This document shows positions 5,626-9,467 of a DNA stretch of 9,885 nucleotides, in pieces. The stretch is taken from the IMG/VR virus record IMGVR_UViG_2534681835_000035; one strand, given 5' to 3'. This DNA comes from a virus (Duplodnaviria > Heunggongvirae > Uroviricota > Caudoviricetes). The notes under the pieces are model-generated. The model saw only the letters and a list, made by a program, of their open reading frames with translations, was not told the origin of the DNA and made no database searches. The stretch's first letter is position 1; the number at the start of each line of letters is the position of its first letter. A program made the position numbers and the translations under genes.

Positions 5626-6360
5626 TCACCGCTGCTGTTCTCTGGTGGCGGTAATATCCCGGAGAATATCCCGGCACTTGTTCAGCTCCCGCAGCGCGGC
5701 GCAGACTCGCTCCCACTTCTGAACCTGACCTTTTGCCCGGCGCAGCTCGCGGTTAGCCACATGCAGCGATGGTAAAATCAGACCATCCGGATGCTTTCTG
5801 GTGAACGACGGCTGTGACTGCACTGTGACCGCCACACTTTCCGTTTTTATTTCTTCCTGTGTTTCCGCTTCCCCGACTGGTAACGCAACACCTGCTGGCT
5901 GAGGAAAGGCTTTACCATCCGTTTCCGCTATGGATGCGGCTTTCGGCTCTGCCGGTAAATCAGCGCCCGGTATGCAGTACCGAAATTTACCGCCCTGATT
6001 CACGCGAATCAGACGCCCTTTGCTGATTGCCATGGCCAGTGATGAATTCGCCCGGCGGGAGGTAATCCCGAACATCAGTGCCAGCTCATCCGCCGTTTGT
6101 GGGCCATGATGTTCAATCGCCTCAGTCAGCATTTGCGCTGTCACTTTCGGTACCGGTGACACTGGTTCACTTTCACCAGCCTGAATCAGCCACCACATCG
6201 AACCCTTGTTATCCGCTTCACCACGGCGCTTCAGTTTCCACAGTTCGTTGACAGCATCTTCGCGGCTGATTCCAAGGCGCGATGCCACTACCTGTGAAGA
6301 GGCTTTTTTCAGTGCTTTCAGTGCGTCAAATACAGTTTCCATTAAAACGTCCTCCAACAA
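5626..6360 (-). CDS. YdaW-like (DUF1627-like) prophage protein with two winged-helix-like repeats
   Basis: 244 aa, 3 nt downstream of the DnaC-like gene, as ydaW follows ydaV in Rac. Internal repeats [24 protein letters not shown] and [29 protein letters not shown]. Family name is from memory. Confidence 0.65.
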
Positions 6361-6363
6361 AAA

Positions 6364-7110
6364 TTACTTCACAACCCTCTGATTGCTGACATTTGGACGC
6401 CAGCTATCCCAGTTAAACGTCACCCACCGACCACCGTTCATGGTCATGCGGTCCATAATCCTCTCACCAAGAAGCGTGCTCATTGCGGCATGATTCAGGT
6501 TTGTTAACATCCCGACACTGCACAGTGATGCTGTCCGGCGATCAATTATCTGGTGTAATACCACCTGCTCGTTTTTCGTCTCCCGCTGAACGCCTATTTC
6601 ATCCAGGACCAGCAAATCAACACTGCAAAGCTCCTGTAAAAATTTTTCCCCGGATTTGCCGTTGTCGTAGCTGTCATGCAACACGCTCATGACATCAGAC
6701 ACGGTGACGATAATCACGCTGCGCCCCTTCGCCATCAGCCGGTTACCCATCGCCGCTGCAAGGTGATTTTTCCCGGTGCCGGTTTTACCGCTGAACACAA
6801 AATTCGTGCACCCGGTCATCAGTTCGTCAGCTATGGATTTGGCCTGGCTCAGCGCGTATTTTTGCCCGTCGTTCTGCACCTGATAATTCGCAAACGAGCA
6901 TTTGCTGTGCAGAGGCTGGATGCCCGAACGATTCAGGATTTTTTCCACCCGCAACTGGTGATTCTGGCGGTTAATCTCCTCGCTGCGTTTTCGTCCTTCA
7001 ACAAGTTGCCATTCCCGCCACTCCTCCACCGTCCGGTACGGTGGAACCGACGCCTGTGGTGCAAGTCTGCGAATACGTTCAAGAACCCCGGCTGCCGCAA
7101 TGTTTTTCAT
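6364..7110 (-). CDS. DnaC-like helicase loader (AAA+ IstB-like ATPase), phage replication protein
   Basis: 248 aa, collinear with E. coli DnaC: RSGIQPLHSKCSFANYQV, Walker A FSGKTGTGKNHLAAAMG, Walker B DLLVLDEIGVQ, C-terminal WVTFNWDSWR. Confidence 0.9.
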   Translation of the reverse strand: MKNIAAAGVLERIRRLAPQASVPPYRTVEEWREWQLVEGRKRSEEINRQNHQLRVEKILNRSGIQPLHSKCSFANYQVQNDGQKYALSQAKSIADELMTGCTNFVFSGKTGTGKNHLAAAMGNRLMAKGRSVIIVTVSDVMSVLHDSYDNGKSGEKFLQELCSVDLLVLDEIGVQRETKNEQVVLHQIIDRRTASLCSVGMLTNLNHAAMSTLLGERIMDRMTMNGGRWVTFNWDSWRPNVSNQRVVK

Positions 7111-7116
7111 GCCACA

Positions 7117-7770
7117 TCACCCCCTGAATCCCGGCGGAATTTCGGTATCCGGTTCAGAAATATGATTCACACAACGCTGGTTGTTCGTGCCGCTTACCGG
7201 GAGCAACCAGGGGTTTTCAAAATTCCGGTCCGGCCCAAAAAACGTCGTCGCTCGCTGAACAAATTCCGTTCCCGTTTTCCCGGTAGCCGCCAGGTATCTT
7301 GCGTAACGCCTCACACCATCCAGTATGGCCTCTGGTGGCACCCCCTCGCGTAATCTGGCCTTCCAGGCACTGAAAGCGGATTTCTTCGGGTTTGCCCCAG
7401 CACGCAACGGGTATTCCCGCCAGACCTGTTCGAACACATCCGGATAATCCACTCGTCCCACAGGCTGCCCGGTGTTTTCCGGGACTACCCGATCGGCTTC
7501 CCGCTGAATGGCGGAATCGGCTTCAGGCTGCTGCAGTTGGTGTGATTGCTCCGGCCTTGCGGTCATCACCTGCTGCACAGCGCCCGAATCGGCTTTCAGC
7601 GCATACGCTGAATCGGCTTCCGGTGTCGTGCCTGCTGGCTGACCAGGATTGACGGTCTGAACATCCCCTGCCTGGTTCGTGGCGTTTTTTACGCCATGGA
7701 CCATAGTGTTTTGATCTTCTTGATCTGTATCTTTATCTGTATCTTTATCTGTCGTGACTCGTCGTGACAT
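7117..7770 (-). CDS. Replication-initiator-like protein, C-terminal part (ORF2), possibly the 3' portion of a single gene frameshifted relative to 7745..8188
   Basis: 217 aa, ending 6 nt before the DnaC-like gene. C-terminal domain DYPDVFEQVWREYPLRAGANPKKSAFSAWKARL...TGKTGTEFVQRATTFFGPDRNFENPW resembles a replisome-organiser C-terminal motif. The 5' end lies inside the iteron array and encodes TDKDTDKDTD from tandem repeats. Confidence 0.6.
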   Translation of the reverse strand: MSRRVTTDKDTDKDTDQEDQNTMVHGVKNATNQAGDVQTVNPGQPAGTTPEADSAYALKADSGAVQQVMTARPEQSHQLQQPEADSAIQREADRVVPENTGQPVGRVDYPDVFEQVWREYPLRAGANPKKSAFSAWKARLREGVPPEAILDGVRRYARYLAATGKTGTEFVQRATTFFGPDRNFENPWLLPVSGTNNQRCVNHISEPDTEIPPGFRG

Positions 7771-7799
7771 GTGCGTGACATTTCGTGACGCGCCGTGAC
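7723..7799. repeat. Putative replication-origin repeats: 2.5 copies of a 12-bp tandem repeat (ATCTGTATCTTT) followed by five direct CGTGAC iteron-like repeats at 10-11 bp spacing
   Basis: CGTGAC at 7753, 7763, 7774, 7784 and 7794. The 12-mer is at 7723..7734 and 7735..7746 with a partial copy at 7747..7758. An AT-rich tract lies immediately to the left (about 7700..7750). Confidence 0.6.
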
Positions 7800-8188
7800 A
7801 ATCGCCATTTTGTTCCCGCTTTCTTTCCCTCTCTCGCTGCGCCCTCTTGCGCTCTGCAGGAGATTTTGCGGTTTGACGAAATATTGCCGTTGTCCTCTTT
7901 AAGCACCTGGCGTTTTTCCCATCCAGTGATTAAATCACCATCAAGTACCCGCCCCTGCATCGTCTGCAAAATTGAATCAATTACCTCTTCTGTCACGTCG
8001 AGCGCACTTGCCAAATCTTCTGTCGTGACATCAATGTGACCTCGCGTGACATTTCGTGACGCGCTCACCAGGAGGTGGATATACACTGCCATCACTGTTG
8101 CAATTGGCTGCCCTGACACCCTGGCAATTGTTCGCCACTTAGGGTCATTTGGCATGTCATGCCATAATCTGAGCCAGGCGTTAGCCAT
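7745..8188 (-). CDS. Replication-initiator-like protein, N-terminal part (ORF1)
   Basis: ATG at 8188 with AAGAGGTGA Shine-Dalgarno (the ORF track starts at GTG 8194). N-terminal MANAWLRLWHDMPNDPKWRTIARVSGQPIATVMAVYIHLL resembles phage replication-initiator DNA-binding domains. The ORF ends inside the first iteron cluster and overlaps ORF2 by 26 nt in the +1 frame. Confidence 0.6.
   Translation of the reverse strand: MANAWLRLWHDMPNDPKWRTIARVSGQPIATVMAVYIHLLVSASRNVTRGHIDVTTEDLASALDVTEEVIDSILQTMQGRVLDGDLITGWEKRQVLKEDNGNISSNRKISCRAQEGAAREGKKAGTKWRLSRRVTKCHAHVTTSHDR
7992..8064. repeat. Second iteron-like cluster: CGTGAC at 8024, 8045 and 8055, a TGTGAC variant at 8035, and an inverted copy GTCACG at 7992..7997
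   Basis: The 20-mer CGTGACATTTCGTGACGCGC occurs at both 7774..7793 and 8045..8064. Spacing is again 10-11 bp. Confidence 0.55.
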
Positions 8189-8259
8189 ACTCACCTCTTC
8201 TGATACCGAATCTTTTTACTCACGAGTTGCCGGAAGCGATTCGATACGGCTATTGTCAG

Positions 8260-8685
8260 TCAATGTACTGCCACAGCATTTCCTGCCGGGCCACCACGGT
8301 TCATCTGATTGAAACCGGCGATTGCCACTGCGACAAAATCATCAGCGTCTCTCACCAGTCGCTCCCGCGTCTCCACCAGCTCCCGAAAATAAGCTGAACT
8401 GTGGCTGCGCATTCTGGCCACCAGCAAAGGTGGCATTGCCTTTTCGATCGCTGGTAACAACGCCTGAATTTTTTCAACTGCATCAGGGGTGTCTTTCTCT
8501 ACCCAGCGGAAAATTTTCTGGGTATTGCGAGCCAGGGCTTCCGGATGGCTGTCGTCATACAGTTCAGGAAACGTCATACCCAACTCAAAATAAGCCTGGG
8601 TTATTCCAGCTGCTGGAACTTTTTCGCCATCAGGACGCGCCCAGGCATTCATCGCCATGCGGATGTGTTCATGCTTGATTTTCAT
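8260..8685 (-). CDS. YdaT-like prophage protein (occupies the cII position downstream of cro)
   Basis: 141 aa beginning MKIKHEHI and ending ...VH, matching my recollection of Rac YdaT-family proteins. AGGAG Shine-Dalgarno 8 nt upstream; overlaps the Cro-like gene by 17 nt. Confidence 0.6.
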   Translation of the reverse strand: MKIKHEHIRMAMNAWARPDGEKVPAAGITQAYFELGMTFPELYDDSHPEALARNTQKIFRWVEKDTPDAVEKIQALLPAIEKAMPPLLVARMRSHSSAYFRELVETRERLVRDADDFVAVAIAGFNQMNRGGPAGNAVAVH

Positions 8686-8950
8686 GAATCAAGCTCCTAG
8701 TAAGTGGTTGTGTTAACGTTTTGGTATCTTCCAGCTCGGGCCAAATATTCATCCAATCAAAAGGCCTTAGTTGCTGACGTGTAACTTCACCATTACTGGC
8801 TCGCTCAATAAGGACACATAACGATGCCCCTAACATTTGACCTTTACTCAATGCCTTTCTTAGATAACCGATGCTAGTACCACACTCACATGCAAACATA
8901 CGCTGTTCATCTGACGAAAGAGAATTGAGAAATATTCTTAATTCTTCCAT
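8669..8950 (-). CDS. Cro/YdaS-like HTH regulator
   Basis: 93 aa with a Cro-like motif (GTSIGYLRKALSKGQMLGASLCVLIERASNGEVTRQQLRPFDW). AAGGAG Shine-Dalgarno 6 nt upstream. Divergent from the repressor gene. Confidence 0.7.
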   Translation of the reverse strand: MEELRIFLNSLSSDEQRMFACECGTSIGYLRKALSKGQMLGASLCVLIERASNGEVTRQQLRPFDWMNIWPELEDTKTLTQPLTRSLIHENQA

Positions 8951-9049
8951 AGCTACTCCTTAGTAAACACAGCAAGAATACCCACAGGTAAACAAAAGTC
9001 AATACCCTTGGGTTGTTTACCTTGCGGTAATCGCATCTATTATTTACCT
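8951..9049. promoter_or_regulatory. Divergent promoter/operator region between the Cro-like and repressor genes (OR-like)
   Basis: Three TACC-N4-GGTA-type inverted repeats: 8979..8990 (TACCCACAGGTA), 9003..9014 (TACCCTTGGGTT, one arm imperfect) and 9018..9029 (TACCTTGCGGTA). Leftward PR-like promoter TTGACT (plus 9002..8997), 16-nt spacer, TATTCT (8980..8975). Rightward PRM-like -10 TATTAT (9038..9043) ends 6 nt before ATG 9050, suggesting a leaderless repressor mRNA. Confidence 0.55.
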
Positions 9050-9467
9050 ATGGACAAATATGAATTTAGACGACAACAACTCATCAAAATTCGTGATGAG
9101 AAATGCGATGGTAAAGCGGTTAACGTGGCCAGAAAGATCGGTCGCGAGCCTTCTTATGTATCAAGAATGTTGTACCCAGAGGGGAAAAAGGAAAAAACGG
9201 ATCGCTGATGATATGGTGGAGATTATAGAAGAGTCCTTTGGGTTACCCCGGGGATGGATGGATGGTATCGTTTCATCATCAACGAACACAGCCTCCAATT
9301 ATGAAACAAGGGTTCTAACGCCACGACAACGTATTTTTTTAGATCTCTTAGACGAACTGCCAGAAAGTGAAGCGGATAACTTATTAAAAACTCTTGAAGA
9401 GAAAAAACAGTATTACAATATGATCTACGAAGAAATCCGTAAAAAGAAAGCACAAAACGCATCATAA
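9050..9467 (+). CDS. CI/RacR-like prophage repressor, reading frame interrupted by an apparent +1 frameshift in the G4A5G2A6 tract at 9181..9197
   Basis: Frame A (ATG 9050) encodes an N-terminal HTH (KAVNVARKIGREPSYVSRMLYPEGKK) and stops at 9206..9208. Frame B continues from about 9198 with protein-like sequence RIADDMVEIIEESFGLPRGWMDG...LLKTLEEKKQYYNMIYEEIRKKKAQNAS to 9467. Removing one A from the A6 run would fuse them into a protein of about 138 aa. Confidence 0.6.

Follow-up and report, generated by a model that had tools for sequence, protein, structure and literature searches.

What does a cluster of short, regularly spaced repeats mean when it lies inside a replication gene that itself appears to be broken in two? 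This question is raised by the IMG/VR record IMGVR_UViG_2534681835_000035, a stretch of 9,885 nucleotides (nt) of Caudoviricetes DNA that we analysed whole and call the window. Here, an initiator gene on the minus strand (7117-8188) carries two arrays of a hexamer and is read as two overlapping open reading frames (ORFs). We consider it likely that an origin of replication lies within the initiator coding sequence, made up of a five-iteron array, an AT-rich tract, and a second array about 230 nt upstream, and that the ORFs were split by one extra base, most likely an error.

The hexamer GTCACG (CGTGAC on the other strand) occurs 14 times in the window, with 4.46 +/- 1.93 copies expected, and none of 200 shuffled sequences reached that number. 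Nine of these copies fall within 7753-8060. The main array, at 7753-7799 on the minus strand, consists of five exact copies (starts at 7753, 7763, 7774, 7784, and 7794; spacing of 10, 11, 10, and 10 nt) and codes for part of a disordered interdomain linker, CHGASRNVTHMSRRVT, its hexamers being read as C-H, S-R, V-T, S-R, and V-T in all three frames. The upstream array, at 8024-8060 on the same strand, has four copies of GTCAC(G/A) spaced by 10-11 nt, three of them exact (8024, 8045, and 8055) and one, in the gap they leave at 8035-8040, a GTCACA. It codes for amino acids 43-55 (ASRNVTRGHIDVT), where helix 3 of the N-terminal domain (N-domain) ends and a low-confidence loop lies, and both arrays are contained in the initiator coding sequence. 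A single inverted copy lies at 7992-7997 on the plus strand (CGTGAC on the coding strand, codons D-V-T). Its position (gene nt 192, or 180 where the match begins 12 nt later) is kept in many related loci with the same motif, a recurrence for which the conserved peptide LDVTE could be an alternative cause.

Directly after the main array comes the AT-rich tract (7700-7752, minus strand), which is purine-rich on the coding strand, encodes DKDTDKDTDQEDQNTM, and is proposed here as a DNA unwinding element. Its G+C content is 0.30 against 0.54 for the gene, and the gene's lowest-G+C 40-nt segments begin at 7702-7711 (G+C 0.25-0.30). Within it, at 7718-7752, are 2.9 copies of a 12-nt tandem repeat, TCTTTATCTGTA. 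An initial annotation of this DNA had described both arrays, the inverted copy, the tandem repeats, and the AT-rich stretch, and all of these hold up. It had also placed the end of one ORF and the beginning of the other within the first array; the ATG of the downstream ORF (7768-7770) does lie there, while the stop of the upstream ORF (7745-7747) falls in the tandem repeat, 6 nt past the array.

These two ORFs, at 7745-8194 and 7117-7770 on the minus strand, overlap by 26 nt with a +1 offset and match PHROG 3729 ("replication initiation protein", 356 positions) at positions 1-149 and 140-356. In near-identical Escherichia coli O111 genomes, the gene is one continuous coding sequence of 356 amino acids (WP_001262366.1; 1071 nt in its intact form), whose protein cluster in E. 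coli/Shigella has 5786 members and bears the NCBI name "phage replisome organizer". The earlier view that both ORFs belong to a single gene, interrupted by a change of 1 nt, is borne out by the one 356-amino-acid coding sequence of the relatives. What breaks the gene is a base inserted at 7876, an A in the plus strand and a T in the coding strand (tttcg^caaacc), which falls between codons 105 and 106. In the alignment of homologues, the upstream frame is right as far as ...NGNIS and the downstream frame is right from QTAKSPAERKR... onward. The upstream ORF product (7745-8188, minus strand) thus comprises the true amino acids 1-105 and an out-of-frame tail of 42 amino acids ending at a TAA in the tandem repeat, and the downstream ORF (7117-7770, minus strand) begins at an internal Met in the true frame of the linker and the C-terminal domain (C-domain), a frame that is open upstream to 7929. 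The junction had been suspected near the A5 run at 7915-7919; alignment to intact alleles moves the sole indel to 7876. That position, some 40 nt away from the A5 run, is neither in a repeat nor in a homopolymer, and in both arrays every base agrees with the intact O111 allele; the proposed repeat-mediated slippage of the frame or the repeat number is therefore rejected.

The extra base is the only difference from the intact gene at locus L001 and one of only two differing sites over 9885 nt in comparison with L003, the closest complete genome. Over the same length, the window has no substitutions relative to E. coli O111:H8 strain 8E and differs by the base at 7876 and by two shortened A-runs, at about 9189-9191, each one base short (A6 to A5 and A7 to A6). 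The cI-like gene is likewise split by these A-run changes, into ORFs at 9008-9208 and 9060-9467. The exact 147-amino-acid product is recorded only in the draft genome of E. coli DEC8E (GCA_000249875.2, EHW28036.1), and none of the 1222 complete E. coli genomes carrying the surrounding 80-nt segment has the extra base. These comparisons point to one extra base private to this draft assembly, most likely a sequencing or assembly error; an error in the reads or the assembly is favoured because the differences are indels only in an otherwise identical sequence. For the sequencing method itself, our search found nothing useful on DEC8E or its accession AIGJ.

The same base could instead be a real and very recent mutation inactivating the initiator of a decaying DEC8E prophage, which we regard as rather unlikely. 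The insertion is not within a homopolymer, and the prophage was already damaged by an IS1203 insertion beside a truncated DUF1133 gene. Frameshifts within about 50 nt, each different from this one, are also carried by other assemblies, among them one complete genome (P0123, BDZ90339.1). They comprise a shift at the A5 run (in P0122), a T3-to-T2 change, an insertion 2-3 nt away, and a deletion of 11 nt. The position outside a homopolymer and the neighbouring frameshifts do weigh against the artefact part of our interpretation. They are set against a pattern typical of read or assembly error, with no substitutions, indels only, two A-run changes that also break the cI-like gene, and a product and a base confined to one draft. 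Phage 204576 (CP025907) was considered as a second carrier of the break and rejected, as its homopolymer deletions, at 7872 and 7219, are different ones. In the intact gene, the +1 frame is open for about 61 codons (7745-7929, minus strand) over the basic region and the main array, and any +1 shift there therefore yields the same 147-amino-acid product; public data contain four different such alleles (P0121-P0124). This long open frame is probably a by-product of T-poor composition.

We also asked how the arrays behave across homologues. A scan limited to one genome per species gave 60 loci sharing the N-domain, from gamma-, beta-, and alpha-proteobacteria, and array statistics were taken on 55 genes. 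In most of these, the commonest hexamer occurs in two clusters with a spacing of about 10 nt, at gene nt ~129-160 (3-4 copies) and ~387-430 (3-5 copies). The motif is GTCACG in 25 loci, GAACGC (CGAACGC) in 17, and TAACG (GTAACG) in five, with eight lacking a clear array. Both clusters of a gene carry the same motif, and the class varies with lineage. The top hexamer of nt 100-215 recurs as a downstream group of at least three copies in 25 of the 55 genes and of at least two copies in 36, compared with 0-2 and 1-3 genes, respectively, for five control windows. A gene's downstream region holds its own motif in 3.03 copies on average and the motif of another class in 0.13, and the 4.5-kb flanks of each locus are nearly devoid of the motif (0-2 copies). 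In nearly every locus, a purine- and AT-rich tract (AGATAAAGATAAAGA, AGATACAGATACAGA, or AGAGAAGAGGAGA) comes right after the downstream array, even in genomes of 66-69% G+C. This placement was confirmed by eye, since automatic detection sometimes took a basic-region tract upstream of the main array and gave bimodal distances.

The number of iterons varies among relatives, as the initial annotation had suggested might be worth comparing, and is unchanged relative to the O111 allele. Close relatives differ by 7 amino acids (21 nt, two repeats) and by 11 amino acids (33 nt, three repeats) at the two arrays, and the upstream array of E. albertii reaches six copies. The arrays are inherited with the N-domain, because this domain is present at 59 of 59 loci, the window's type of C-domain at five, and a DnaC-like neighbour at four. 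Other partners of the N-domain include bona fide DnaT domains (PF17948). The N-domain is thus the likely reader of the arrays, as judged from these patterns of inheritance.

Some loci depart from the common arrangement. Two Xanthomonadales loci (L059, nt 2584-2609, and L061, nt 2575-2600; Stenotrophomonas/Dyella) have a three-copy GTCACG upstream array at gene nt 75-104, which sits in a 6-amino-acid insertion between helices 2 and 3, unlike the loop used in all other lineages. This position suggests an independent placement of the upstream array. At two loci of the GTAACG class (L025 and L029; gene nt 160-175 and 422-432), the copies overlap inverted copies and form a palindrome, GTAACGTTAC, and the iteron may be read as a dyad in this class and as a direct repeat in the GTCACG class. 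In Pseudomonas sp. JAI111 (L030), the upstream array is enlarged by a 22-amino-acid insertion (gene nt 137-210), with direct copies of GTCAC at 137, 158, 168, and 206 and inverted copies at 181, 190, and 199.

The repeats are best explained, on sequence grounds, as initiator-binding iterons with an unwinding element. Several features of an in-gene iteron origin occur here together: direct repeats in helical phase (five and four), an adjacent AT-rich tract, a position between domains, a helicase-loader gene next to the initiator gene, selection at the DNA level, and co-inheritance with the N-domain. The initial annotation had already placed the repeats within an initiator-like gene, in a lambda-O-like arrangement, and this is upheld, the lambda-like order here being array, AT-rich tract, and helicase-loader gene. 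Several observations weigh against this interpretation. Eight of the 55 genes (for example, L031, L045, L047, and L058) show neither array clearly, so the layout is not universal. The distance between the arrays ranges from 221 to 318 nt across loci, with no constant helical phase, and a constant phasing between the two arrays was accordingly rejected. Matches of the N-domain to known replisome organizer profiles are below threshold: residues 5-122 align to positions 1-118 of the 121 in Phage_rep_org_N (PF09681) with 12.7 bits (cut-off 23.3), and the alignment to TIGR01714 scores 15.4 bits (cut-off 49.8). A Foldseek search of the whole AlphaFold model against the PDB gave nothing significant, only weak matches to winged-helix regulators (best E 1.9); the long disordered linker probably hampers such a search. 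Finally, our literature search found no publication on the origin of this initiator family, and a paper on the mobile elements of Pf-5 mentions iterons only for an unrelated plasmid-like oriV.

One alternative is that the arrays are protein-binding sites with another role and that replication starts at some other place. Bound protein would then act either in autoregulation, blocking transcription of the gene like a roadblock, or in copy control through handcuffing. Two separated arrays do recall the iteron sets of plasmids in which one set controls (incA/incC of P1 and incB/incC of F), and the upstream array has no AT-rich tract beside it. We nonetheless think this improbable, as the main array is followed directly by an AT- or purine-rich tract even in GC-rich hosts and the motif is nearly absent from the 4.5-kb flanks. 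The order of iterons, AT-rich tract, and helicase-loader gene also matches, by analogy, that of ori-lambda (PMC7466680) and SPP1 oriL (PMC6316719).

A second alternative makes the repeats a by-product of a repetitive, low-complexity peptide linker with no function as DNA. The linker is disordered and also holds the peptide repeats DKDT and EADS. Across the homologous genes, however, the array copies fall almost equally into the three reading frames (84, 78, and 76 in frames 0, 1, and 2), so that one hexamer encodes different peptides, and codon choice maintains the hexamer. When synonymous codons were permuted with the protein and codon usage kept, the gene had a mean of 1.6 and a maximum of 6 copies of GTCACG against the 8 observed, with none of 5000 permutations reaching 8; the outcome was similar in seven of eight other loci. 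The upstream array, moreover, codes for part of a folded domain, and the two arrays switch motif jointly across lineages. A peptide origin of the repeats is accordingly very improbable. Frame usage, codon permutation, joint motif switching, and linkage to the N-domain together indicate that the repeats are under selection at the DNA level, as read from sequence comparison.

The weakest alternative takes the two ORFs for genes that are separate by nature, or for halves of a product made by programmed ribosomal frameshifting. It can draw on the open +1 frame of about 61 codons (7929-7745) and on two PHROG families of 157 positions, which match the N-terminal ORF (ORF2) from end to end and, in the C-terminal ORF (ORF1), residues 61-217. 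It has next to no standing, since all close relatives have a single ORF of 356 amino acids one inserted base apart from the window, distant homologues align in one frame across the junction, and the junction differs in each of the other split alleles, which leaves no natural boundary in common and nothing in favour of either version.

With the split set aside as a probable error, the intact protein can be considered as a whole. The earlier suggestion of a YdaU- or lambda O-like initiator is not supported: a Pfam scan of the 356-amino-acid protein found no match to lambda O (Phage_rep_O) or to YdaU, which we take to be DUF1376, even at E<=10, and its only entries, none of them significant, were HTH_Crp_2, Phage_rep_org_N, and PhyR_sigma2. 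The AlphaFold model, for which 32 sequences were used, has a mean predicted local distance difference test (pLDDT) score of 61. Residues 1-87 are predicted to form an N-domain of helices and a beta-hairpin (block pLDDT about 55-87) containing a low-confidence loop (48-51); further on come a disordered segment (128-243), within which the main array and the AT-rich tract fall, and a confident C-domain (245-332; pLDDT about 90). In the disordered linker, GAAGCCGAT occurs four times, once with a mismatch (7492, 7516, 7588, and 7612, spanning 7492-7620 on the minus strand), and encodes EADS, EADR, or KADS. Close relatives carry deletions of 8, 26, and 32 amino acids in this region, and distant homologues retain (E/K)AD(S/P) motifs; these copies may be a short linear peptide motif or a further DNA repeat.

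The region from about amino acid 245 to 356 (7117-7455, minus strand) resembles the C-terminal domain (CTD) of the host protein DnaT and ends in SEPDTEIPPGFRG. In a profile search against PDB sequences (alignment A2), it matched the DnaT CTD structures 6AEP (E 4.9e-8), 2RU8 (5.8e-6), and 9ZBT (1.8e-5), and the match takes in the terminal SEPD..IPPGFRG. The window's own C-domain did not reach the DnaT CTD family (PF17948) in a single-sequence Pfam scan, and the N-domain homologues L006 and L013 do reach it above its cut-off. The C-terminal tail scores 18 bits (E 0.0015) against the NCBIfam DnaT equivalog, far under the cut-off of 201, and the initiator is therefore not a DnaT orthologue. In the 2RU8 alignment, the last 13 codons (7117-7160, minus strand), encoding SEPDTEIPPGFRG, nearly equal the C-terminus of E. 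coli DnaT, SEPDSQIPPGFRG, and the tail IP.GFRG is retained in homologues of 45-60% identity. Taken together, sequence and model suggest an initiator in which a disordered linker joins a winged-helix-like DNA-binding domain at the N-terminus to a DnaT-C-terminal-like domain.

These parts suggest how the origin might work. N-domains would occupy the phased iterons, all on the same side of the helix, and so bring several DnaT-like C-domains together beside the AT-rich tract, where the latter could capture or stabilise the opened strands of the purine-rich sequence. In the preprimosome, the CTD of DnaT is known to assemble into a filament on single-stranded DNA (PMC13377028). Host DnaB would then be delivered by the DnaC-like protein that the next gene encodes, and the upstream array may strengthen the nucleoprotein complex through looping or serve in copy control. 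More broadly, and more tentatively, it is possible that these loci represent a widespread, experimentally uncharacterised class of proteobacterial prophage origin that is bipartite and lies wholly in the initiator coding sequence. One array would run through the sequence coding for a surface loop of the same DNA-binding domain by which it is read, with a move to another loop in Xanthomonadales, and specificity would have switched at least three times, in both arrays at once. The initiator would be an origin-targeted DnaT: its N-domains, in phase, would seed a DnaT-CTD-like filament on the unwound strand of the purine-rich tract and thereby mark the loading site for DnaB and DnaC.

The region is best explained as belonging to a defective lambdoid prophage in E. 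coli O111 (strain DEC8E), for which it would be the replication module. On the minus strand, a Cro/YdaS-like gene (8669-8950) and a CII/YdaT-like gene (8260-8685) precede the initiator gene, which is followed directly by the DnaC-like helicase loader gene, encoding an ATPase (6364-7110), and then by a DUF1627 gene (5626-6360); the cI-like gene is divergent, on the plus strand (about 9049-9467). The DnaC-like product matches Pfam IstB_IS21 (PF01695; E 2.8e-19), PHROG 50, and NCBIfam PRK12377 (NF009043; E 5e-153, 507.8 bits, above the cut-off of 389), and its match to the DnaC equivalog (E 4.5e-89, 298 bits) is below the cut-off of 357. The whole window is nearly identical to a prophage in E. 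coli O111 genomes. In the closest complete genome (1-1343 of L003, compared with 1-730 of the window), the window's left end adjoins the IS1203 insertion next to the truncated DUF1133 gene, and the prophage is thus defective whatever the state of its initiator. A match to the 1.1-kb initiator region is present in 2519 of 5426 complete E. coli genomes, covering at least 80% of the region in 1647, and a single genome can have as many as four such places. Prophages residing in one host may therefore have the same iteron specificity, and could either complement or disturb each other.

If the arrays are indeed an origin, they would define one for a large family of prophage initiators without a studied representative. 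The N-domain was found in only 25 phage records, none of them a model phage, and the annotations conflict ("protein O", "primosomal protein I", and "replisome organiser"). The three motif classes would offer a natural system for the co-evolution of initiator specificity and its site, with the site encoded inside the gene of its own reader, and the DnaT-like C-domain would tie origin-dependent initiation in phages to the replication-restart machinery of the host. The split gene should not be taken as biology, and it illustrates how indel-only differences in older draft genomes create false pseudogenes.

The closest parallels are lambda O with ori-lambda and the Shiga toxin (Stx) phages P27 and 933W, in which the origin likewise sits in the middle of the gene and has its iterons ahead of an AT-rich tract, and in which the gene for helicase delivery comes next. 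In the O proteins of Stx phages, the difference between four and six iterons adds 13 amino acids (PMC7466680), a step paralleled here by the steps of 7 and 11 amino acids. There is no sequence relation to lambda O, however, and no Phage_rep_O match. Lambda has four spaced, longer iterons, whereas the core here is 6-7 bp and recurs every 10-11 bp; there is also a second array within the part coding for the DNA-binding domain, a DnaT-like C-domain, and a DnaC-type ATPase partner instead of lambda P.

In SPP1, gp38 binds direct repeats in its own gene, beside an AT-rich unwinding element, and the genes for a helicase loader and a helicase follow (PMC6316719). The likeness to this "replisome organizer" and its oriL lies in the in-gene repeats and AT-rich tract, in the NCBI name, and in the sub-threshold full-length alignment to Phage_rep_org_N. 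The Pfam and TIGRFAM scores fall short of their cut-offs, though, and SPP1 has its second origin, oriR, about 13 kb away, in contrast to a second array in the same gene here, and both the C-terminal domain and the loader are different. With E. coli DnaT, the initiator shares about 100 C-terminal amino acids, including SEPD..IPPGFRG, and a dnaC-like gene follows as in the dnaT-dnaC operon (PMC13377028). DnaT is recruited by PriA and PriB to abandoned forks and has its own oligomerising N-domain, whereas the protein described here has a winged-helix-like N-domain that looks sequence-specific, and repeats within its gene.

Two separated clusters of the same initiator-binding repeat are also found at incC/incA of P1, incB/incC of F, and ori/crr of the satellite phage P4. 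There the arrays flank the gene or lie kilobases apart, in contrast to the present case, in which both are in the coding sequence, about 230 nt from each other. In-gene iteron origins are thus already known, and what is distinctive about this locus is the short core at each helical turn, the second array in the coding sequence of the DNA-binding domain, and the lock-step switching of motif in combination with a DnaT-like C-domain.

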